From Amphiscolops sp. MND2022 (taxonomy: Eukaryota): a stretch of DNA of 64,000 nt. Positions 1,014 to 54,100 of this stretch are shown here, in pieces. The stretch is from positions 11,658,001-11,722,000 of the forward strand of contig OZ076409.1 in the NCBI GenBank assembly GCA_964187785.1, given 5' to 3'. The position numbers and the translations under genes are program-made. Under the pieces are notes generated by a model. The model saw only the letters and a program-made list of their open reading frames with translations, was not told the origin of the DNA and ran no database searches. The stretch's first letter is position 1. Each line of letters begins with the position of its first letter.

Positions 1014-1318
1014 TGTAACCTACCATTACTGGATATCGGAAAATGTTTCCCCATAAGCAGTGGAACGATGAAAAGGGAACCGGCCAAAAGGAAGGGTACC
1101 GTCCAAACGGAACGGCCAAAAAGAAAGGTACCGTCCAAAAGGAACGGCCAAAAGGAACGGTCACCGTCCAATAAGAAAGGTTTAATAGTACCGTTTAGAA
1201 TGTAATCCTGCCCTTTGGAACAATGATTTGGCATAAATAGAGTTGATTTCTTATCATTTATTCATTATTAATTTAACCTTCATTCGAATCAGTTGTCTTT
1301 TTGTTATTCGACTCCACA
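1014..1318 (+). repeat. 5' LTR
   Basis: Starts TGTAACC, ends CCACA, and lies directly before the PBS. Matches 5188-5217 plus ~6758-7029. Contains internal tandem GGAACGGCCAAAA/GGTACCGTCCAAAA units. Confidence 0.9.
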
Positions 1319-1321
1319 AAT

Positions 1322-1339
1322 TGGTGACCCCGACGTGAT
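1322..1339 (+). promoter_or_regulatory. Primer binding site complementary to the tRNA-Trp 3' end
   Basis: TGGTGACCCCGACGTGAT is the canonical 18-nt tRNA-Trp PBS, 3 nt after the LTR-terminal CA. Confidence 0.9.
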
Positions 1340-1419
1340 GGATGATCCAACACAATTGGAAGACTCTACCACTGCTTATAATCACATAACTAACGGAGGT
1401 AGCAGTGATTGCAAAAACA

Positions 1420-2167
1420 ATGCTCAAGTGGGGAGAATAACAATCAAACCTCCAACTTTCTAAAGAAACAACCCGCAAGTCTGGTTCAGACAACTCGAGT
1501 CCCAATTTGCACTAGCAAATATCACCAGTTCCCAAACAATGTTTCACTACGTCATGGGCGCATTACCGGAGGACGTCGCAATCAACATCCCACTGGACGT
1601 TACTTCTTACGAATCTCTATAGGAGCAGATAATCGGAATCTACCAAACAAGTCAACAGGAGTTAGTGGAGGAGGCCTTAGGTTCAATTTCCCTTGACGTC
1701 CATAAACCGTCAGTCTATTTCCTACGCATAAAGTGCAAATTAGAAGATTGCCACTTAACCGTCGATGACCATTTTTACGCCACAAATTCCTCCAAGCGTT
1801 ACCTCCAACGACACGTGTTGCCCTGTCCGCACATCATAATTTGGCCTTGGACGATTTCGCTAAACTTGCGGATACGTTATACCAGTATTCAAGGTTCGAT
1901 TACCACGTAGCAGCAGTAAGACCCAATCCTAAGGCCGAACATGATTCTGTCTCCCTGAACAGAAACTTTCAACCCAATTCTAGACAGCAAAAAGGAGGGA
2001 TGTTTCCCTTCAGCGCGGGGCAAAAACCAAAAATTTGCCGATTTCTTGTCTTCTATGCAAATAATGCCGAGCGGTGTAAACCCTGGTGTAAGTGGCCTGG
2101 TCAGAAACCACAGTTGATTGATGCTTCATCACGACCAGCAACCCCAAACAACCCAGCGTCAAACTAG
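1420..2167 (+). pseudogene. Gypsy gag, disrupted
   Basis: Fragments IKPPTF*RNNPQVWFRQLESQFALANI and LDDFAKLAD, plus a degenerate C-terminal Cys knuckle. Stops and frameshifts are present. Confidence 0.75.
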
Positions 2168-2229
2168 GAACCCCTAGCGTAGTGGAAGCTTGCACTGGGG
2201 GTTTTATTCATTGAGATCGCTGCCTCTAT

Positions 2230-4847
2230 CAATTCTAGTCAGCAAAAGTTTCTTATAGACACAGGATCAATGGTGTCCATTGTTAAGCCCAGTTTAATCC
2301 ATCCAGTTACTATTCTGCCTTCCAACGCAGTTCCATCCACCATTAAAGGTGACGCATTGAACGTTTACGGAAAAGTTACAATACCAATTGAAATACCTTC
2401 CTTACGACGTTGCATCAGCGATACCTTTTTCGTCGCTGACGTGTCGTGCAATATTCTTGGTATTGATTTCTTGTCAACAAACGATTTTTCAATTGATTGC
2501 AAAAATGGCCGCCTCAAGGATAACACAACATTGTTGTCTACTGCAACTCAATTTAAAAAGTGCAACCATGCAAATTTAAAAAAAGGAACCTAACGATTGG
2601 AGGCCTTGTGGAGATTACCGACGGTTAAATTCGGTCACTAAAAAGGATTGCTACCCACTTCCACAGCTATTGGATTTCAATCTTCATGGCGAAATAGTTT
2701 TTAGTAAGTTGGACTTAGTAAAAGCATACCATCAGATACCAGTACACCCTGATGACATAAAGAAAACTGCTGTGACAACACAGTTTGATCTTTTTGAATT
2801 TCTACGAATGCCCTTTGGTCTCCGAAATGCAGGACAAACATTCCAACGCTTCATGAATACAGTTTTCCAAGGATTAGATATGGCTTTCACCTTCGTGGAC
2901 GACGTTCTAATTGCATCAGACGATATAACGACTCACTTGGAAGACATCGAAGCGGTATTGGAACGCCTGAAGCAATACGGACTGCGCTGCTCTATAACGA
3001 AATGCAAATGGATGAAGAATGAGATCAAATTCCTCGGATTTTCGATCACTGCTGAAAGTTTACAACCTAAAGCGGTCAAAGTCGAAGCTATTCAACGATG
3101 GCCACGTCCCACAAGTTACAAAAGTTTGCGACGTATGATGAGAATGTTCTCTTTTTATCGACAACATGTTCCCCATTATGCAGAAATAGTCGAATCTCTC
3201 CAAACGTTACTCAATGATAGTCAGCCATCCCGTACTTCAAATTTGATAATCGACACACCACTGCGTTGGGAACAATTCCACGATGACGCTTTGACTTTAT
3301 TGAAGAACAAACTTTCTGAACGTACCATGTTACACTATTTATCTCCAGATGGTACTCTCACTCTCACCACTGATGCTTCTGACAGAGCAATTGGCGGAGT
3401 TTTACACAACAACAGAACGGACGGGACAAACGCACCTCTAGCCTTCTTCTCACGAAAATTATCTGTCGCAGAACGAAATTATTCTGTATTTGATAAAGAA
3501 CTTTGAGCAATTTTTGCCGCAACACAGAAATTTCGACGGTTTATTGAAGGTCTTTACTGTGTCGTTTTTACCGACCACAAACCCATTCTGGCGTCCTTTC
3601 GAAAAACAACCGACCACTCCCCTCGACAATCACGGCAGTTTTCGTTCTTGTCGGAATTTATTGACGACATTGTTCATATTGCTGGTGACAGCAATTTGGT
3701 AGCTGATTATCTATCACGACCCGAAAAAGAAGAGAGTTGGGTACAACAGTCGAAACTTGTATCTGCTGTAACTTGTGACCTTTTCGATTTACAGGCAATC
3801 GATGAAGCGCAAACACAGGAATTTAAGGAGGAATTGTGCCAGGTGTACAGTCAAGGCACCAAAATTGTTACTATTCCACCAGACAAAAAATTACTCTGCG
3901 ATAATGCTCTCATCCCCCGCCCAATAGTTCCACCAGAAATGCGGAAAAAATTGTTCCTCAACTTTCACAACATGTCACATCCGAACTGGAAGGCAACTAA
4001 TAAACTGATTTCAGCACGTTTCACCTGGCCGCATTTGGGTTCGGACGTGAAGGGTTGGTGCAAGGAGTATTTACACTGTCAGAAAAGCAAAGTTACACGA
4101 CACACAATAACGCCTCCTGCATCAAATGCAAGTTATCCAGCCCGTTTCCAGCATTTACATTTGGACATAGTAGGTCCTCTGCCTGCAGTGTCGAATTGCC
4201 CGAATAGATATATTCTTTCTTTTATCGATCGATCAACAAACTGGATAGAAGCTACTCCCATTAGTTCTATCACCGCAGAAGTCGTGGCTGAAACATTTAC
4301 TTCTACTTGGTTTTCGCGGTTCGGAGTCCCACTCTACATTACTACCGATCAAAGACGCCAGTTCGAATCTGATTTGTTCGCCGAATTATCCAAGTTGCTT
4401 GGTTTTGCACGTCTTCGTACTATACTTTATCACCCCCAAGCCAATGGTAAAATCGAAAGGTACCATCGAACTTTAAAAGCGTCTTTAGCAGCCTCACCTT
4501 TACCGTGGACTCAAGCTTTACCGGTCGTTTTATTCAGTCATAGAATTCTGCCCAATGCCATGGGAAAATCCCCTTTTCAACTGGTAACCGGATCGGATGC
4601 TTTTCTTCCCACTATTTTTAAAGAAAAACAACAACAAACATTCACTCGTGATTTCGTCTCTAAACTGGCCACGCATTTGCAGTTATTACAATTTACAACA
4701 CCTTCATTGACTCCTCATTCCGGTTCCAAGCAATATGTTCCTCTTGACTTTCAGGAGGGTAGTCATGTTTGGCTACGAGTTGATCGTACCAGGCGTCCTT
4801 TGGAGGCACCCTATAGTGGTCCTTTTTCTTTTTCTGGAACGCAATGA
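2230..4847 (+). pseudogene. Gypsy pol (protease, RT, RNase H, integrase), disrupted
   Basis: DTG protease. The RT N-terminus appears deleted near 2580. RT/RH ORF 2670-3506 ends in an in-frame TGA. Integrase ORF 3648-4847 has an HHCC remnant, the D-D-E core (HLDIVG, TTDQ, GKIER) and a GPY/F motif (PYSGPF). Confidence 0.92.
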
Positions 4848-4947
4848 TTAAACAAGGTTGATACAATGCACGAACGGTCCTACCCGAGTGAGTTAAACCA
4901 GAATTAAACCTTGGTACTTTCCATCAGAGCCACATATCAAACCAACT

Positions 4948-5151
4948 GTGCCAAAATTGTTAGAGGACAATGGGTCCTTTTATACTTGTGGGGGACCTTT
5001 TAACACCGGTATGATCGGCTGCGACGGTCCTAATTGTGTCATACAATGGTTTCAATTTCCGTGTGTAGGAGTTGACAAACCTCCTCAAGGCAAGTGGTTT
5101 TGTCCTACTTGCAGGGAACAACGAGTTCAGAAAACCGTTTCATTCGCATGA
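4948..5151 (+). pseudogene. ING-type PHD finger remnant at the 3' end of the Gypsy internal region
   Basis: YTCGGPFNTGMIGCDGPNCVIQWFQFPCVGVDKPPQGKWFCPTC follows the ING PHD pattern (MIGCD..C..EWFHF.CVG....P.GKWFCP.C). The first Cys and the His appear substituted. Confidence 0.85.
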
Positions 5152-5498
5152 TATATGTCAACCCTCCGTTATTTTATGGGGGACCTCTGTAACCTACCCA
5201 CACTGTATATCGGAAAAAAATATTTCGATTCCAATTTTAGTCACAAATTCTTTATTACTTTTTTTTGTTTGAAACATTATATTAAACGTATAATTCAAGC
5301 CGTTAGATTGATGGGCAACAATGCGTTGAGGCAACTTATCATGATTACGTAATTACGAAGTAGTATGATGACTCATATGAATCATTTCAGAAGTCATCGG
5401 AAGTCAGAAACGTGACCACACTTCAAACGACACAAAGGATCGTTTGCAACCCACAGAATCACTTCTCTTCAAAAAACAGCACCAAACGGTCGGCAGAA

Positions 5499-6418
5499 AT
5501 GGAAATCAGCTCAGACGAAATGTCCCTTCTGAAACTCTACAGGACCGGCAAAATGCAGGCTCGGAAGAATGTTACCAAACCTCGCCAATTTGACATTGTT
5601 GTCTATTACGCCGCAGAATGGAATGGTTGCTATTACAAAGTCAACTGAGTGGTTCGCTCAAGTGCCAGTGGACAACGAGCAAATTGTTAGCAATCCTGCA
5701 CCTAGAACGTTTCACTGCAATTCAACACCACAGAAACAGCGTGAACAACTTTTATCCAGCTCTTCAGATTCGAGCAGCAGTTAATCCGAGACCGATGAAG
5801 TACCACCACCCAAAAGGCCGCAGAAGAAAAGTGATGGCAAGGAAGAACGGTTCTCGCCAGCTAAAGAATTGGCACGACCCCCAACCAACGAGTGGCACAA
5901 CAACCTGGTACCGCTGAATAAGCTGGCCAGCCTGTCCACATCGCAGATAAGCACATTAGACGATGTCAACGAGGTCGACGATCAAATCCGTGACCTTACG
6001 CCAGAGATTGAGGACATCAACGTTCCCTTTCAAGAAGAAAGTTTAGCCATAAAAGTGCCTCCAGGAGCCAAATTTGGTAATTGGGTTATTTCACGAAAGA
6101 GTGGCATGACAGGTTTTGAGATCAACAATATGTGCCGAGCCATGGGACGTTTCACTGGTTTGAGGTACGATCAGATTGAAGCAAAACGACAAGCCAAATT
6201 ACATGACCCGAGCTACTTATGCTGCAGTGTTGGTTCACCGTCTGTGGTTAGTGGCGCAAATATTGGACAACCCGAGGTCAACATTGCGGAAAAAAGTCAA
6301 GGTTTTTGCGAAAAAGAAGATGGACCTGACCAAGCAGACAACACTTGCTAATTTGATACTTCGGTTGCGACTAACTGTAACCGACACCGATTACTTAGCT
6401 TCACTGATATCGGAAATT
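5499..6418 (+). pseudogene. Decayed ORF of unknown function inside the 3' LTR (NLS-like and HTH-like motifs)
   Basis: ORFs 5412-5648, 5569-5784, 5869-6351 and 6176-6478 join with 2 frameshifts and 1 stop. Motifs PPPKRPQKK and LVAQILDNPRSTLRKKV. Confidence 0.55.
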
Positions 6419-6419
6419 G

Positions 6420-6757
6420 GGCTGGCTGTAAATAGGTCGAATTTTTCTGGTCGAAAGGACAGAGGTCGAACCTTTTGATCGAATTGCAGGGATCGAATAA
6501 AATGCGGTCGAATTTTATCGTATTTGTTGTATGGCTCGGTCGCTTCGCTCGCTTCGCCAAGTAGCAACATTGAGGCATGGCCATATGGCACGTCGCTCCG
6601 CTTCGCTTCGCTCCTGCATCCAGGGCACTAGGGGTATGTGAACATATCTTATAAAAGTTTCGATCCGAGTTGTTTCGATCCCATTCAAAAATTTGGTATG
6701 TCGACCTGAGGACTAACTGATTTTCGATCCCGTTTCTTCGACCTATATCCGCCCACC
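6420..6757. mobile_element. Mutator-like MITE (TCGA-rich family) inserted in the 3' LTR
   Basis: Imperfect TIRs GGCTGGCTGTAAATAGGTCGAA / TTCGACCTATATCCGCCCACC. Flanks CGGAAATTG and CGGAAAATG match at 8/9. Near-identical to 11726-12353. Confidence 0.8.
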
Positions 6758-7179
6758 CGGAAAATGCTTCCCATAAGCAGTGGAACGGTCCAAAAGGAAC
6801 CGGCCAAAAGGAAAGGTACCGTCCAAAAGGAACGGCCAAAAGGAAAGGTACCGTCCAAAAAGAACGGCCAAAAAGAACGGTCACCGTCCAAAAGGAAAGG
6901 TTTATTAGTACCGTTTAGGATGTAATCCTGCCTTTTGGGACAATGATTTGGTATAAATACAGCTGATTTCTTATCATTTATTCATTATTAGTTTAACCTT
7001 CATTCGAATCAGTTGTCTTTTTGTTATTCTTATAACCCTGCATTCCTCACCTGCCTTCCTTTTGTGTCAATTCTATTTATACTATTTACTTTGTTCTGGA
7101 ATCAATGATAGAAAGTCATTTGTACTGCCACATCCCGAAGGTTAATTGATTATCTTCTTCTTCTATTCGGATTGCATGA

Positions 7180-7445
7180 AATGGGTCGAATGAAATAGGT
7201 CGAGAAGATTTAGGTCGACCCTTTTGGTCGAATAACTTAGGTCGAATTGACTGAGGTCGAATTGGGTCGAATGGACTTGGGTCGAAATCAATATGTTGTC
7301 TCCCTTGAACTTGGCATTTTTCAAGGTCGACCCAAGTCCATTCGACCCAATTCCGAAACGGTGAAGATTCGACCCATCGCACAGGAGGCCGATTCGACCC
7401 ATTTCTTTCGACCCATTTCCGTTCACCCCTTCTATTCGACCCCTC
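7180..7445. repeat. Foldback element of inverted GGTCGAA arrays
   Basis: About 9 GGTCGA units face about 6 TCGACC units. Perfect 26-bp inverted repeat at 7260-7285 / 7327-7352. Confidence 0.75.
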
Positions 7446-7666: not shown

Positions 7667-8169
7667 GGGGAGTCTTCAATACGTCGAACACGGATTAATT
7701 TAGCGAGCATGGTATGACCTAATGGAATTAATTGATTTCGGCCATTCAAATTCGAGCATTCAAAATTACGTTAACGTAGTCAGCTATGTTCACATACTCC
7801 TAGTGCCCTAAATGCAGGAGCGAAGCGGAGCGACGAGCCATATGACCATGACTCAATATTGCTGTTTGGCGAAGGGAGAGACGCGACAAATATGCTAATC
7901 GCATATGCTAATAATTTATGCTGATCGCTAATAATTTTCGAATATCCTCAATTTGCGGGAGGAAGTTCATCGTATATAAATAGTACAAAGAGAGCATTGA
8001 GAGTTGGATAAAGTTAAGTTGGGATTTAATGATGAGCGCTATACGATTCCGAGTCATACAACGAATATGCTAATCGCCACAAAATATAACCAAATGAAAA
8101 TAATCGCTGATATGGAATTCTTTCGACGCATGAAATAGTTTTTCGACTATTTGAGTGTTCGACGAATTG
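7667..8169. mobile_element. Copy of the 37091-37485 Mutator-like MITE with a ~160 bp internal insertion
   Basis: Colinear with 37091-37485 from TTCAATACGTCGAACA to GTTCGACGAATTG. Confidence 0.7.
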
Positions 8170-11100
8170 TTGTTGTTGTTCTTGTGAATTTCCAGCTCGG
8201 CTGGAGGAATCTCTTCCTATAATTTCCAATGTATCCAGCTGTTTCACAGAGAGGGTTCACTCTGTATGCAAAAGTAGTCTACACTTTTGTTAGGGGGCCC
8301 TCTAGCTTACAAATTGAAACGTAAAAAATCAAAGCCTAAACATAAAAACAACTTAAAAGAACAAAGTGTTGAGAACGAATGGATTTTTCCTTTGAACATA
8401 AGGTCTATCGACTACAATTTTGAAGAACTAGAAACGCATATAGATACATTTCGTGAAAACAAACCGTGTATTATTTGCTTGTCCGAAACATGGATGACTG
8501 AATCCTCTGACAAAAATGCCTACGCACTAGAATCCTATGCACCTATGGAATTTGATCCTGGTTCAACAAGAAATGAAGGTGTTGCAATATATGTCCATGA
8601 ATCGCTGGCATTTGAACTTTTGGAGCTTAACATACAGAAAGATTCTATTCCTGATCTAAACTATACTGGAGTCAATTGTACCGCTAGGAATAAGGAAAAA
8701 TTTACCGTTGTATGCTTATACAATTCGCCTTCCGTAAATAAACATGATTTCTTGAATCAGTTTGAGTTACTTCTTGAGTCTCTTAGTCAAATTAAGAACT
8801 ACTATCTAATAGGCGATATTAATATTGACCTCTTGGAATGCAACCCTGTTGCAGATAGGTATCTGAAATTGTTGGAAATTCATGGTTGCGCCCAAGGAAT
8901 CGAAGAACCAACCCGTGTAACGCTTGACTCAGAATCGTTAATCGATCATATAATCCATAATGACTACCAAAGACCTCTGGAATTTGGAGTTATCAAGACG
9001 TATATTACAGACCATTTTGCAACCTACGTTGATTTGAATATAAGTAAATCTAAATCCATTCGTTCTCAACATTTTTTTAAGGATAGACCGTTTCTCCGGG
9101 ACGGTAATGCAACAAATCTCTATCTAAATTACTTAAAACATTGCCTGGAACTTGTAGACTTAGGACAGGACATCAATGCATCTACTGAATCGTTTGCCAA
9201 TGCAATATCGGAAGCAGTTAATGCTTTCACAGTTGAAAAACAATCAGAACACCAAGATGCCGTAAGACCTTGGTTCACAAAGGAAGTAAAAAAGGCCTTA
9301 ATTCGAAGAAATTGTAGTTTCCACAGATACAAGCGCTGTAAAACCTATCAGAACAAGCTACGCTACACAAGAGCTAGAAATAATGTGCACCAGCAGCTTC
9401 GTAAAAGCAAGCGCGAATAATACGATTCACGTCTGAATGGGCTTATCAATATACCTAAATGTTTCTACAAAGAACTAAACAAAATCACTGGTAAAGCAAC
9501 AAAAAATTCCAACTTTGTTATCAAGAATGATAAAAATGAATTGATTACGGATGATATTGATGTGGCCGAATCGTTCAATGAAAAATTTGTTTCCATCAGT
9601 AAAACCTTAGCTGCTTCAATTGATAATGTCCCATTCACGACTTATGGTATAAAAACTAATGAAAAATCACTATTTTTTTATCCAGCTGATGGCACTGAGA
9701 TTTCGAGGATTATAAAAAATCTTAAGAACCATAAATCACCTGGTCTAGATGGACTGACTGCAGAAATACTAAAAGTGAGTCACGATGTAATAGTTGAAAA
9801 ATTAACTCATCTCGTGAATGAATCGCTAAAAAGTGGAACATTTCCTCAGGTTTTGAAAGCTGCGAGAGTGGTACCGATATACAAATCCGGCAAAAAATCT
9901 ATACGTGAAAATTACAGACCCATATCTGTTTTATCAGTATTGAGCAAAATATTTGAACGTGTTGTGCATGAACGATTATATAATTTCATGGATAAAAATA
10001 AGCTATTATACCCAAGACAATTTGGATTCAGGTCAAAACTGAGCCCCATCCACGCTCTTTCCGATATTACAGAAATGATTAGGGATAATTCTAACCTCGA
10101 TATTTCTTGTATTTTGCTTGATTTACAAAAAGCCTTCGATACAATAAACCATGAATTTCTCTTGTATAAACTCGAAGCATACGGTGTCAGAGGGGTTTGC
10201 TTGGATTGGTTCACATCATATCTAAGTAAACGAAGTCAATGTGTTTCAATTAACGGTAAAGTCTCAAAACCATTACTTATTGACTGCGGCGTTCCTCAAG
10301 GATCTATTCTTGGCCCACTGCTCTTTATAATTTATGTAAATGATTTCCCGAACTCGTGTAAAAACATTATTCCGTTTCTCTTTGCGGAAGATGCTAATTG
10401 CGTTTACGCGAGACCCAAAAATGAAACATCTACATTACAGGATGAAGTTGAACACATTCCTGGATGGATGGCTATGAATAAACTCAGTCAAAATATTCCT
10501 AAAACTGAATTGGTCCATTTTTTAAACTGCAAAGATGAAAGCATAGTATTGAAAAATACTGAAATAACATGTACTGAATACGTTAAATATCTGGGTATCT
10601 TACTTGATAAAAATTTAACTTATGGTTTCCACGTCAAACGAGTACTGAATAAATTAGCTAAACATGTATCCATTATTAACCGTCTAAGGCATTTCACCAG
10701 TAGTTCGGTAGTGATACGATATTATAAAACATACATGAAACCAATTATCCAATACGGACTCTTGATATATGGGTGCACGAGGAAGAGTGTACTGAATGAT
10801 ATATTTCTTGTTCAGAAAAAAATCCTCCGTATTACATACTTTAAAAACAGACGATATCCATGGGATGAATTGTTCAAAAGAAGCGAAATTATGAATGTTT
10901 TTGATCTATACGTATTTGAACTATTAAAATTCGCCGTGCGTTCTAGTAGAGAAAGTCAACTACATAATATCAAGAGCGTATTTATCCACAAAAATTCACT
11001 TGTTTTTACTCGGAGTGTTTCTTCCAATATGTTTTATGTACCTGAAGCACGAACGCAAGTTAGCCGACAATCACTAAAATATCGTGGAACTGTCTTACTG

Positions 11101-11407: not shown

Positions 11408-11958
11408 CGACATTTTGGGCAGCCGCATGCATACTGCCAGGTACATGAGTTGTTGTTGTATCTACTGCAAAATTCGAGAATTCCAGAAATCGAAATTTTA
11501 GTCCAACTAGATTGAAGAAATCTACGCTGTAAGGTAGGTTGTTAACGAGTCGGTATGGTCTGAAGCTGAACTCTGTTCGGGCTTTTTCGCATGTTTCCCA
11601 TAACTTGAAGTCACTTTATTCAATATGATAAGTGTTGGAGAGTTCTATTAAGTCTAATATCTGGAAAAACTGACAGGAAGCATCTTGGATAGAAGATTAA
11701 GATAACTTGAAGCATAGTCGTTTAGGGGTGGCTGTAAATAGGTCGAATTTTTCTGGTCGAAAGGACAGCAGTCGAAGCTTTTGATCAAATTGCAGGGATC
11801 GAATGAAATGCGGTCGAATTTTATCGTATTTGTTGTATGGCTCGGTCGCTTCGCTCCCTTCGCCAAGTAGCAACATTGAGGCATGGTCATATGGCACGTC
11901 GCTCCGCTTCGCTCCTGCATTCAGGGCACTAGGGGTATGTGAACATATGACTACGTTA

Positions 11959-12246
11959 TTGCACATGACGTCAATGTGCATTGCAGTCCAGCCAAGAAAG
12001 TTTTTTTTCCACAATAGCCAACTTCATAATAAGCGCCTTTTAGAGAAAAGCCAAAACCCCAGAGAGATTCGAACCTGCAGCCTCCCGATTGCGCGGCATA
12101 AGTGTTAACCACTGTGCCATAAGGACGTTATTGAATAAAGTTGAACTGTTCAATATATACGCATGCGATTAAAATAATATATATACGCATATTAAAATAA
12201 TCGTTGTCTTCGTCATGTGTTGCGAAGCACCGCTTCGCCTCTGTGT
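11959..12246 (+). mobile_element. Helentron/DINE-like non-autonomous element, family B (tRNA-bearing)
   Basis: 5' subTIR CACATGACG with IR (TGCACAT...ATGTGCA), 3' subTIR CGTCATGTG, stem-loop GCGAAGC-ACC-GCTTCGC. It is absent from the sister MITE at 6420-6757. Second copy at 29877-30166. Confidence 0.75.
12055..12126 (-). pseudogene. tRNA-like Pol III cassette (degenerate tRNA or SINE head)
   Basis: GTCCTTATGGCACAGTGGTTAA...GGTTCGAATC contains an A-box and a B-box, followed by TTTT. Acceptor and anticodon stems pair poorly. Confidence 0.65.
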
Positions 12247-12599
12247 AAAAATTTCGACCCGAGTTGTTTCGATCCATTCAAAAATTTGGTATGTCGACCT
12301 GAGGACTAACTCTGATTTTCGATCCCGTTCCTTCGACCTATTTCCGCCCACCCGTCGTTTAGTACCCAATTCAGTACACGTTTTTGGAAAGTTTCAAGTT
12401 TGATTATCGAAGCTTTTCTGAGGTGAATGCGCGAGGAAGCAAGCTGAAATTAAATAAAAGGTAGAGTGTTCAAGAATTTGAACCGATTAAGACAGAAAAG
12501 TTCGTTTTTTGTCAATAATCTATATCACGACACTTTATTGGTTGCCGTTAGCAAATAATAAGCCTGTTTTTTTTGGAACTGTCGTACCGGTCAGATTGC

Positions 12600-37090: not shown

Positions 37091-37485
37091 GGGGACTGTT
37101 CAATTCGTCGAACATTCTATTCGTCGAACATTCTATTCGTCGAACACGTATTAATTTAGCGAGCTTGGTATGACGTAATGGAATGAATTGATTCCGGCCA
37201 ATCAAAATCAAGTATTCAAAATTACGATAACGTAGTCAGCTATGTTCACATACTCCTAGTGCCCTAAATGCAGGAGCGAAGCGAAGCGGAGCGACGTGTC
37301 ATATGGCCATGCCTCAATATTGCTACTTGGTGAAGGGAGTGAAGCGACCGAGCCATACAACAAATATGCTAATCTCCACAGAATATAATCAAATGAAAAT
37401 AATCGCTGATATGGAATTCTTTCGACGCATTGAATAGCTTTTCATATTTCGACGATTTGAATGTTCGACGAATTGAAGTTGCACC
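37091..37485. mobile_element. Mutator-like MITE
   Basis: TIR core TTCAATTCGTCGAACATTC / GAATGTTCGACGAATTGAA. 9-bp flanks TGAATATCT and TGAATACCT match at 8/9. Confidence 0.82.
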
Positions 37486-51100: not shown

Positions 51101-54100
51101 ACTCTTTCACTTTCTTAGTCAATCATCCTCTAACTACGTACTTATATCTTCAACAAGGATGATCTAGACGGTGCCTAATCAATTCGTAGAATATTCATAT
51201 CGTCGAAACAATTTAAGCTATTCAAAGCGTCGGAAGAATTCCATAGCAGCGATAATTTTAGGTTATCATTTGAAGAGGATAGCATATTTGATGCATGGCT
51301 CGGTCGCTTCGCTCCTTTCGCCAAGTAGCAACATTGAGGCATGGCCATAAGGCACGTCGCTTCGCTCCTGCATTTAGGGCACTAGAGGTATGGGAGCATA
51401 GCTGATTACATTATCGTCATTAGTTGTCGCTTGTGCTGCATTCATTTTACTGGAATTAGAGTAGCGTTCTAAAATAACGCAACCTCATGGCATAAAATGG
51501 CAAAATTCAAAACCAAATATCTCATAAACTGTCACGAATACAAAATTTTGCCAGCTAGGAAAGTTTCTTAGAATTTTATCTAGTTTACAAAAATGTTTGA
51601 AATTTCTACGACCGTTACCAAAAAGTTAGAAATTGCAAATTTTAGTAAATTTCAATTGAAATTTGAGTTTTTTCGAAAATTGAGTAACTTAGAATAATTT
51701 TTTTGGATTTTTTTTCATTGGGAAACTTCCTATAATCTCCCGAATCTACTGAAATGTTTTGATCGAGAATTTTTTCGATCCAGAAAAAATACACTATATT
51801 TTGTGTCTATGAGCACTGAAGTACATGTTTTAAGATGGGCTATAAGAATTGTATTTAGAAAATTGATGATTTTTATTTGAAATCGAAAAAGTTTTCCGAT
51901 CAAATTATATCAGCATCCTCAGGAGATTTGGGGGCAAATGAGTGACTGAAAATTTTTCAAAAATATATTTTCAACTTTGTCAAAATCCAGAAAAAGTACA
52001 AATTTGATTAAATTTTGTCAAAATTCCCAATTTCTAACTTTTGTAATTTTTGTCGCAGAAATTTCAAACAGACATTTTTGTAAACTAGATAAAATTCTAA
52101 GAAACTTTCCTAGCTGACACTTTTTCGTATTTGTGACAGTTTTCAAGAAATTTGGATTTGAAATTTGCGATTTTAAACATCGGAGTTGCGATATTTTAGA
52201 ACTCTACTTTAGATTGGCTCATTGAATGAAATTTTGGTCACGTGATTAGGACGCGCAGTATTTACGCGTGTAAATTGCTTTCGACGCTTTGAATATTCTA
52301 CGATTTGAATCGTCCCCGATCTAGACGTCTTCTGCTGTTATTTTATTCACTCTTTCGATGTGTCCAAATTGAGTAGCTTCGAAGAAAAGGTAAATTGAAT
52401 GACTGACAAGCTGAATTGCAATGCTCAGAGTTGTTTTGAAACACTTGACAAATATTTGAAACTTCGAGAGCTCAAAAACATGAATGTTGCAGATTTCGTC
52501 CCACGTGGAATTTTGACGTCCATGTTTTTGACAGATTTTGTCCCGGATTATGGGAAATTGTTCTATGCTATACACAAAATTAAGCGCTAATCGGTATAAT
52601 TTATTCATTTCAAAATGTGACCTCAAAGTGAAAGGATATTTTCAGGTTATTATTTGAAGAGGTTAGCGTATTTGTTGTATGGCTCGGTCGCCTCGCTCCC
52701 TTTGCCAGGTAGAAACATTGAGACATCGCCATGTGGCACGTCGCTTCGCTCCTGCATTTAGGACACTAGGGTATGTAAACATAGCTGACTATGTTATCGT
52801 AAAAATAATCAATAATTAACTACCAAAGTCATTTTAATGGATGTGGGACGAAGTCTGTCAAAAATGGGACGAAATCCGTCAAAATTCCACGAGGGACGAA
52901 ATCTGTCATTACTCAAAAACATTGATGCATTTCGTTTTTTTTTCATGGTTCACCTAGTAGTTCTGACGTGAGCAACTCATGTGACGTGTCTCGGAACGCC
53001 CATTAGGATAGGAGAGCCCAGTTTGTTCTGAAGCTTTCATGAGTGGTATTCATTTCAGAAAACAGATCTCATCATTGTCACGGGCAAAGTGAACGAAGAA
53101 TGGTGGCTGGGAAGATTAAAGCATGCACTGCCTTCAGAAAAACCAAGAATGTTTCCCTCTAATTTTGTGGAGCCAGCGAAAAAGGTTTTCTAGCATTATT
53201 TCTTCGTAATCAGGAATACTACTGAAATTTACTGAAATGTGAAAATCAATTTAAAATATAGACGAAAATCTAATTTAAAATTTACATGAGTCAACACAGT
53301 CGGCATAACTCCTTCCGCGGTGCGCTTCCGAAACAGAGCATCTTGCCACTATTATTATCTCTGCGATAGCAGGAATAATATTGAAATCTGAACTTTGCAA
53401 TTTTTCGTATGCGATATTTTGTTCGGCAGTGAGTATAAGCGTGAGATTTAAATTTCTCAAGCTGCCGACAACAATTCGTTTCTCGTGCGATGAAACGAGC
53501 GAGTGGTAATTATGCATTCGTACGCTGACGTCATTGAGATAAAGCGAGCGAATGTTCGTAATTATGCTTTCGTGCGCCGAGTTATTGAGATAAAGCGAAC
53601 GGGTGTAAATTATTCGTTCGCCGAGAGCTTCGCCTGCATTCAAATGCGAATGCGAAACTTCGTCTACGCTTAGTAGTTATATTTTCTTTAGTCCGAGAAG
53701 AATCAAAGGGGTTTAAACTGGTACATTGATTAATTGCGCGCTATATAATGATTAAACAGGGGTGTGTAGCTACTCCAGATATGCTTCTATTAATGAACAT
53801 GAAAGCCTAAAAAGGAGAGATAATACTGTGCCCCACAGGGGCCTATTTTCTAAGTTCTTTTACTTCGTAATTTCTACGCGTTTTTTTCGGAAATGTGTTG
53901 ATCATTCGGGATGTTTCTTCCAACTCATTCTCTGCAGGTAATTGATTGTTATTTTCCGACCCGCATTTTCAATGGGGAGGAAAATCATCATCTGTGTTGC
54001 GTTTTTTTCCAAATTCTGCCAAATCTCCACGCTCCATCACTGACTTAACTATAGTCACTTGACTATTTAGTTACTTGACTATTTTAGTAGGAGGGGGAAT

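Follow-up and report, generated by a model that had tools for sequence, protein, structure and literature searches.

The stretch of DNA analyzed here, termed the window, comprises 64,000 nt of the genome of Amphiscolops sp. MND2022 (assembly GCA_964187785.1, contig OZ076409.1, positions 11,658,001 to 11,722,000 of the forward strand) and harbors an old, decayed copy of a Gypsy-like (Ty3/Metaviridae-type) long terminal repeat (LTR) retrotransposon whose two LTRs are unequal. The canonical order of its family is a short 5′ LTR consisting of a head and a body, the primer binding site (PBS), gag, pol with a PHD-like finger, the polypurine tract (PPT), an LTR head of 24-30 nt that ends in direct repeat 1, a segment of 1.2 kb that contains a 309-codon open reading frame (ORF3), direct repeat 2, and the LTR body. 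ORF3 is placed downstream of the plus-strand primer site and inside the expected unique 3′ (U3) part of the LTR, yet it is present once per element. The overall explanation considered here, which is judged to be slightly better than an even chance, combines this split-LTR structure with a translocation of the nascent plus strand from repeat 1 to repeat 2 and with ORF3 as a nuclear accessory protein.

The ORF3 segment is a standard component of the family. The genome was surveyed over 1.07 Gb in 1929 contigs; 13 full-length elements of the family (family A) and four elements of a second family (family B) were read in sequence, and the rest were judged by the coordinates of search matches, the numbers of which are minimum values. 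A search with the 1185-nt segment detected at least 48 genomic matches with 77-94% identity to the window copy (5218..6401). All 30 extracted loci contain the 3′ end of pol before the segment and the LTR body or its remains after it. The 18 matches without an extracted locus also fall inside elements by coordinate comparison, and none of the 48 is found alone. An earlier reading of the window (the sequence-only reading) had assigned the segment to the element, inside the 3′ LTR and downstream of the PPT, and the 30 loci agree with this assignment; the segment is neither found elsewhere, independent of the LTR, nor limited to the window copy. A search with the last 488 nt of pol yielded 42 matches, and those reaching the last base lead to a segment match 26-35 nt on, with the exception of two divergent matches (84% and 74% identity). 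As the segment follows ∼34 of 36 complete pol ends, no segment-less elements are seen.

The segment is bounded in the window by direct repeat 1 (5201-5216, CACTGTATATCGGAAA) and direct repeat 2 (6402-6416, CACTGATATCGGAAA), as the sequence-only reading had noted. The same pair bounds it in 12/12 other copies compared and an equivalent pair does so in family B; the repeats are not a product of chance. The PPT ATGGGGGACCTC, a 12-mer located at 5176..5187 in the window and identical in copies of both families, precedes ORF3 together with the LTR head in 13/13 family A copies (the window copy and 12 others) and in 4/4 family B elements. ORF3 does not lie upstream of the PPT, where an internal additional ORF is located. 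Nor is it carried by both LTRs in the manner of a U3 gene, as the segment is present in 0/10 complete 5′ LTRs of family A and 0/4 of family B.

A short 5′ LTR is standard in the family and already exists when an element integrates. In the window, the start of the LTR is duplicated at 1014-1043 and 5188-5217 (87% identity) and its body at 1050-1309 and 6770-7029 (93% identity), in accordance with the LTR repeats and the 3′ LTR start at 5188 that were reported from the letters of the window. The further claim that the 5′ LTR of this copy lost the segment by deletion is at odds with the other copies. A complete short 5′ LTR, with head and body, is present in 10 of the 13 full-length copies; L031 and L036 have truncated 5′ ends, and L039 is ambiguous. 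The head-type junction (ACTGGATATCGGAAAATGCTTCCCC, at most one mismatch) occurs at 23 genomic sites and its reversed control at none. At least 19 of these sites are 190-380 nt upstream of a match to the PBS region, the rest are farther away or lack such a match, and none adjoins the end of pol or is located at the 3′ end of an element. The repeat-2-type junction occurs at 27 sites, consisting of 25 at segment 3′ ends, one in the LTR shared by tandem elements on contig C8, and one in L039.

The asymmetry exists at integration because the LTR bodies of L033 and L034 are completely identical (252/252 nt), and the perfect 4-bp target duplications in 9/9 copies with both ends also support this timing. 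The LTR bodies of six other copies and the window copy are 90.6-98.9% identical. The long form at both ends of one element, a check that the sequence-only reading had proposed, was never found in genome-wide searches with the junctions, the segment, and the PBS region. The sole 5′ LTR with a repeat-2-type junction is that of L039 (C1:86463000-86470200, locus positions 688-1032), on whose upstream side lie the final 85 nt of the segment and, beyond them, unrelated DNA ending in a terminus like that of a miniature inverted-repeat transposable element (MITE). It could represent a truncated long 5′ LTR, resulting from a failed jump, or what is left of a tandem pair.

The 5′ LTR is a chimera of the sequences on both sides of the segment, with a left part from the 3′ head and repeat 1 and a right part from the sequence past repeat 2. 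The 3′ side of every copy compared consists of the PPT, then TGTAACCTACCC(A/T)CACTGGATATCGGAAAA, and then the segment, which ends in ...TTAGCTTCACTGATATCGGAAAA and is followed by TGCTTCCCCATAAGCAG... in the copies compared. The corresponding 5′ LTRs read TGTAACCTACCC(A/T)CACTGGATATCGGAAAATGCTTCCCCATAAGCAG... and carry the GG of repeat 1, whereas repeat 2 has a single G. The 13th base of the head is T at both the 5′ and 3′ heads of L032, L033, and L034 and A at both heads of the others, with head variant CCCTCACTGG at both ends of the former and CCCACACTGG in the latter. The right part of the 5′ LTR tracks the lineage variants of the 3′ body (...CAGTGCATCCGTCC versus ...CAGTGGAACGGTCC). Since the lineage variants of both parts match those of the 3′ parts, the crossover is located within the 11-nt core ATATCGGAAAA, and each lineage or cycle regenerates the 5′ LTR from the 3′ end, with ORF3 skipped.

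The same layout is present in a second family of the same genome, to which ORF3-related proteins with 47-53% identity led. A 3′ fragment of family B (L044) displays only two BLAST matches to family A, at the pol end and the ORF3 start, with the same order and spacing. The 24-nt head pattern of family B occurs at 24 genomic sites and its control at none, and the split layout is present in 4/4 elements examined. Their 5′ LTR contains TATGGCGTACTGGATGTCGGAAAA directly followed by CTGTACCAAACAG..., and their 3′ side contains the same PPT 12-mer, the same head, and the ORF3 segment, in which the ORF3 end ...GCTTGGATGTCGGAAAA is followed by CTGTACCAAACAG.... Both repeats have the core ATGTCGGAAAA in family B and the core ATATCGGAAAA in family A, the same one-base difference. 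Because the repeats of an element are copied from RNA independently of each other, their joint change speaks for selection on repeat identity. A third, decayed relative (L058) is tandemly duplicated and rearranged with degenerate repeats and is uninformative on the layout.

In the standard scheme of reverse transcription, the 5′ LTR is copied from plus-strand strong-stop DNA, which is started at the PPT and made on minus-strand DNA (PMC3187697, in the portion available). With the head placed after the PPT and the body after repeat 2, the plus strand must pass from repeat 1 to repeat 2 without copying ORF3. A switch of the minus strand would delete ORF3 at both ends; as no such elements are seen, a translocation of the nascent plus strand is proposed. 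Priming at the PPT would produce a short nascent plus strand, consisting of the 24-30 nt head that ends in repeat 1, which would leave its template and re-anneal to the complement of repeat 2. The strand would then copy the body, the repeat (R) and unique 5′ (U5) regions, and the PBS, to be followed by the normal second transfer. A later, long and processive plus strand would run through the 3′ end and copy ORF3. The translocation step itself is inferred and would work like the primer translocation of hepadnaviruses from direct repeat (DR) 1 to DR2.

The layout of the elements is that of a translocation-type system, with two short direct repeats, a donor by the plus-strand primer, and a product whose junction falls within the repeat. 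The distance from the PPT to the start of repeat 1 is 10-13 nt, the 11-nt core contains the junction, and the repeats covary between the families. A more specific proposal is a third obligatory strand transfer, hepadnavirus-like and moving the nascent plus strand or its primer between repeats of 11-17 nt, in an integrase-bearing LTR retrotransposon, which would keep a U3 gene single-copy and outside the promoter-bearing 5′ LTR. The putative nuclear, helix-turn-helix (HTH)-like ORF3 factor might take part in this transfer or act on the LTR. Taken jointly, these propositions are tentative and fall a little short of an even chance.

ORF3 is a real, conserved gene that may be specific to the elements. 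Eight of 30 loci (L005-L012) have an uninterrupted frame of 309 codons starting at the ATG, which runs from MQISSDEM or MEISSDEM to ...LISENASP. The stop in intact copies is a TAA ∼10 nt past repeat 2, such that the C-terminus is specified by repeat 2 together with the initial bases of the LTR body; the family B protein ends in ...SEN with the stop immediately after repeat 2. The segment in the window consists of a non-coding leader of ∼280 nt followed by a broken ORF3 that starts at 5499. A candidate splice acceptor is located before the ATG, near 5478, and the leader could alternatively contain an internal promoter. Compared with an intact copy, this ORF3 harbors 1-nt length differences near 5558 and 6183 and an in-frame TAA at 5782-5784, which correspond to the two frameshifts and one stop counted in the sequence-only reading; the PPPKRPQKK and LVAQILDNPRSTLRKKV motifs pointed out there are both present. 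The same reading had extended the frame, after removal of a MITE, through ...ENASHKQWNGPKG... to a TAG at 6916-6918 in sequence common to both LTRs. This extension exists in the window (ORF 6721..6918) and in this copy only. The C run before the stop is one base shorter in the window copy than in 12/12 other copies compared, and the window frame reads into the tandem repeats because of this private one-base difference, whereas intact copies terminate at the TAA past repeat 2, which corresponds to 6774-6776.

Relatives of ORF3 are few, with 14 identified by a word-indexed search and 31 by an exhaustive search of 1.84 billion representatives. Those checked are short proteins with no informative names. 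P0021 (297 aa) aligns to ORF3 over the full length with 30-32% identity; no confirmed locus was found for it in the metagenome collection. P0041 led to one weak, unrelated marine contig (L057) that was not used. The ratio of non-synonymous to synonymous substitution rates (dN/dS), calculated by the Nei-Gojobori method between intact ORF3 copies, is 0.43-0.54 in the pairs with the greatest divergence (12.5-14.5 synonymous and 20.5-25.5 non-synonymous differences). The signal for selection is weak, and the conservation between the families provides the stronger argument for a protein.

The predicted architecture of ORF3 consists of a short conserved N-terminal part, a disordered linker rich in Ser, Asp, and Glu, and a helical C-terminal domain. 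The linker contains a basic cluster that resembles a nuclear localization signal (NLS), PPPKRPQKKKDGKKER in family A and KKRKKEKK in family B. A structure model of the whole protein has a predicted local distance difference test (pLDDT) score of 64, with residues 160-305 at 80-96, and the C-terminal domain modeled alone reaches a pLDDT of 88.2 and a predicted template modeling (pTM) score of 0.84. HTH profiles are found below threshold among six relatives, one each: HTH_8 (E 0.0045), HTH_28 (E 0.12), HTH_30 (E 0.21), and RWP-RK (E 0.087). The weak fold matches returned by VIA-align include many HTH DNA binders, such as Spo0J/ParB (Z 5.0, root-mean-square deviation 2.3, 62 residues aligned), sigma region 4 (Z 3.9-4.1), DnaA domain IV (Z 3.9), and KorB (Z 3.5). 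An ESM Atlas search with the ORF3 model gave a best score of 0.86, which is under the level of a lead. As the likeness to profiles and folds is only weak, an HTH in the C-terminal domain around ...DIPRSTLRKRVK... is plausible and not established. No signal peptide or membrane span was seen in ORF3 by eye, without a predictor, and the protein is not env-like. Judged from the weak likeness to profiles and folds, ORF3 would be an accessory protein that is nuclear and probably binds DNA. Its message would be a spliced RNA or one from an internal promoter, terminating in the 3′ LTR, and the protein may act on the LTR or cDNA of its own element. Of the accessory nuclear DNA-binding protein envisaged in the sequence-only reading, the conserved ORF and the NLS-like cluster are supported, and the HTH-like C-terminal domain is weakly so.

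A number of observations weigh against the translocation or the role given to ORF3. Retroviral deletion between direct repeats rises with repeat length and the reported cases have repeats of at least 117 bp, according to the portion of PMC3187697 available; repeats of only 11-17 nt would therefore need help to reach the near-complete efficiency seen. Duplex prediction with the flanks of repeat 1 and repeat 2 detected no significant complementarity, with z values of -2.3 to +1.0 that are inconsistent between families, and folding of 74-80 nt around repeat 1 on either strand detected no stable hairpin (z -1.7 to +0.4). The model must also explain why the repeats are unused in minus-strand synthesis, which would give ORF3-less elements, none of which is seen. 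For the protein, dN/dS values of 0.80-1.16 are obtained between L006 and the young group on 3-5 synonymous differences, and the within-family values rest on few changes. No Pfam family matches ORF3 or the six relatives at threshold. Sequence comparison with the PDB revealed no match (best E 0.48), Foldseek against the PDB revealed nothing at E ≤ 0.001 for the whole ORF3 or the domain, and the best VIA-align matches (Z 4.8 and 5.0) are weak and below the level that is meaningful for the tool.

The rival explanations differ in the step at which the two ends become unequal. Both LTRs could be made long and the 5′ copy of ORF3 later removed between the repeats, either if the minus strand jumped in its last extension and the resulting loop was repaired or through single-strand annealing by the host on unintegrated or freshly integrated DNA. 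Any homology-driven deletion would give a junction within the repeat core, as observed, and the 5′ LTR of L039, with the end of the segment and its repeat-2-type junction, could be the remnant of a long 5′ LTR. However, such a removal would hit the 5′ LTR in essentially every copy and the 3′ LTR never, as illustrated by the absence of head-type junctions from 3′ ends and by the segment after nearly all complete pol ends. A heteroduplex loop should moreover leave many long 5′ LTRs, and at most one ambiguous case is present among ∼20; later removal is consequently regarded as unlikely. The asymmetry could also arise at the level of RNA if RNAs containing the segment were co-packaged with RNAs that lack it or end at repeat 1 and the two forms were combined by strand transfers. 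The A run after repeat 1 (GGAAAAAA) could in principle mark an RNA 3′ end, and retroviral particles carry two RNAs with transfers between them (PMC3187697). In the standard scheme given in the available portion of the same source, however, the 5′ LTR is copied from plus-strand DNA made on minus-strand DNA and not from RNA, and therefore mixed RNAs alone do not give a short 5′ LTR with a long 3′ LTR. The absence of AATAAA upstream of repeat 1 in the window and of any ORF3-less elements among those seen makes an origin at the RNA level quite improbable.

The remaining alternatives concern the history of the segment. The sequence-only reading proposed an ancestral LTR of ∼1.5 kb at both ends and loss of the 5′ copy by deletion between the repeats. 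The direct repeats do bound the segment, and the segment is downstream of the PPT, as U3 is. Yet the short 5′ LTR is found in 10/13 full copies, two of which have identical LTR bodies and intact target duplications, as well as in 4/4 family B elements, and with the long form at both ends never found, this history can be given almost no credence. Equally hard to sustain is the insertion of an unrelated mobile element or a captured host gene into this 3′ LTR, with the repeats as a target duplication. A flanking repeat of 15-16 nt resembles the duplications generated by target-primed insertion, but 48/48 genomic matches of the segment are inside copies of this element family, neither edge of the segment carries poly(A) or poly(T), and the 31 protein relatives among 1.84 billion representatives are all short and unnamed. 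Unrelated insertion is contradicted for the window copy; the family as a whole could have originated through an ancient capture.

The assignment to the Gypsy type relies on domains, ends, and duplications. A Pfam analysis of the open pol of L033 identified RVT_1 (E 4.7e-33), RT_RNaseH (E 2.4e-27), Integrase_H2C2 (E 2.7e-15), and rve (E 1.8e-9) in order, and the order of protease, reverse transcriptase (RT), RNase H, and integrase is that of Ty3/Gypsy-type pol. The gag of the family carries DUF7041 in an open copy, and the elements begin with TGTAACC... and end with ...CCCCACA (TG...CA). Ty3/Gypsy elements have two LTRs of the same structure, whereas here the ORF3 segment interrupts the 3′ LTR after 30 nt and never the 5′ LTR. 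These unequal LTRs are a departure in structure that leaves the kinship unaffected, and the element is Gypsy-type in every other respect, including its ends, duplications, PBS 3 nt after the LTR, and PPT. A PHD-like zinc finger ends pol after the integrase (window 4897-5151; residues 1047-1091 of the L033 pol; 5918-6144 in L044). Its matches to PHD in Pfam do not reach threshold (E 0.002 and 0.00045). Both families A and B retain the finger, which may substitute for a chromodomain as a chromatin-reading module.

The features of the window copy lie on its forward strand, apart from the MITE, to which no strand is assigned. The short 5′ LTR (1014..1318) consists of a 30-nt head joined straight to the LTR body, ends in ...CACA, and contains tandem repeats of 32 nt (1079-1170) and a TATA-like motif (1232-1240, CATAAATAG). 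The PBS TGGTGACCCCGACGTGA (1322..1338), read from the sequence 3 nt past the 5′ LTR, is kept in nine element copies. Decayed gag (DUF7041 type) and pol follow at 1339..5151, according to Pfam on the window and on an open copy, and the parts of pol are the protease, RT, RNase H, integrase, and C-terminal PHD-like finger. The window copy lacks ∼290 bp near 2569-2580, at the protease-RT junction, that are present in other copies. The 3′ LTR head TGTAACC...CGGAAAA (5188..5217) holds direct repeat 1 (5201-5217). Direct repeat 2 (6402..6417), whose sequence specifies the C-terminal residues ...LISE(N) of ORF3, is truncated on its 3′ side by the MITE (6420-6758). This MITE, placed at 6420-6757 in the sequence-only reading, has imperfect terminal inverted repeats of 22 nt and occupies this site only in the window copy. 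The 3′ LTR body (6758..7029) includes the tandem repeats (6799-6890) and, downstream of them, a TATA-like motif (6951-6960). The final nine nt (GACCCCACA in other copies) are missing, and the body ends at 7029 with no visible target duplication. The identity of ∼91-93% between its LTR bodies indicates that the window copy is old.

The tandem repeats of the LTR body comprise three 32-nt units of the AACGGCCAAAAGGAAAGGTACCGTCCAAAAGG type in both LTRs of the window, and family B has other repeated motifs at this position. The length of the LTR differs among copies, with matched spans of ∼243-296 nt. Head-to-tail arrays are present on four contigs (C9:41262498-41265469, C11:44256075-44264373, C4:43654236-43665820, and C8:52465953-52478913), with units of ∼1.6, 2.05-2.5, and 3.16 kb that each contain a pol end, PPT, head, ORF3 segment, and LTR body; the C8 array contains two full elements with one long LTR in common. 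A rearranged copy (C6:60634477-60636215) has the PBS-proximal region ∼68 nt after the ORF3 segment, with most of the LTR body missing. The MITE belongs to an abundant, GGTCGAA-rich family, located in the window at 6420-6757, 7170-7440, 7772-7885, 11723-12353, 37216-37372, 51285-51414, and 52663-52806. It recurs in other loci at 92-94% identity and is also inserted in or beside other retrotransposon copies (L006, L027, L033, L035, L039, and L042). Judged by eye, the flanks of the element at 1-1013 and 8380-9000 resemble fragments of non-LTR retrotransposons (long interspersed nuclear element-like), with RT-like motifs in the left flank and an endonuclease-like ORF from near 8380 in the right.

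Retroviral genes in or overlapping U3, such as sag of mouse mammary tumor virus, nef of HIV/SIV, and bel/bet of foamy virus, are copied into both LTRs. The present family resembles this type in having an accessory gene that is downstream of the PPT and ends inside the 3′ LTR, but excludes the gene from the 5′ LTR in every copy examined. Tyrosine-recombinase retroelements of the Ngaro/DIRS type have split direct repeats and are without a DDE integrase or target duplications. Their terminal repeats, like those described here, are not simple identical LTR pairs; in contrast, the present family has integrase domains, TG...CA ends, and 4-bp duplications. Plant and animal elements are well known to carry additional ORFs between pol and the 3′ LTR (PMC7264820; PMC5408684). 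As far as the available portions of these sources go, the elements share with the present family a sense-strand extra ORF after pol in most copies, with no cellular relatives and probably expressed from its own message (PMC7264820; PMC5408684). Their PPT adjoins the 3′ LTR, such that the ORF is internal (PMC7264820), whereas the PPT and the first 24-30 nt of the LTR precede ORF3 in the present family and its stop is in the LTR body.

Hepadnaviral primer translocation needs complementarity between the primer and DR2 as well as cis elements, and its failure results in priming in place (PMC5408681, in the portion available). The likeness is one of mechanism only, with two short direct repeats, a donor at the plus-strand primer, and a product that continues from the acceptor, and a rare product of failure by priming in place would be expected in both. 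The present family differs in that it is an integrase-bearing LTR retrotransposon with a PPT primer, known from sequence alone, and the moved piece would be the primer with 24-30 nt of DNA, carried over ∼1.2 kb, and not a capped RNA oligomer. No account of an LTR element in which a gene divides the 3′ LTR and is missing from the 5′ LTR was found among the literature listings and abstracts covered, which are incomplete, and an earlier description is possible.

Computational methods that search for equal repeats will misplace the 3′ boundary of these elements, resulting in either a 270-nt LTR with an "internal" ORF3 or a 1.8-kb 3′ LTR, as in the window. The confident fold of ORF3 and its lack of a clear structural match make the protein a candidate for structural and DNA-binding studies. 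Textbook replication makes both LTRs from the same U3-R-U5, and the present family reproducibly makes two different ends. These unequal ends would show that the textbook scheme can be extended by a programmed extra transfer, for the study of which the family provides natural material, and they show that a retroelement can carry a gene downstream of the PPT without doubling the gene or lengthening the promoter LTR.

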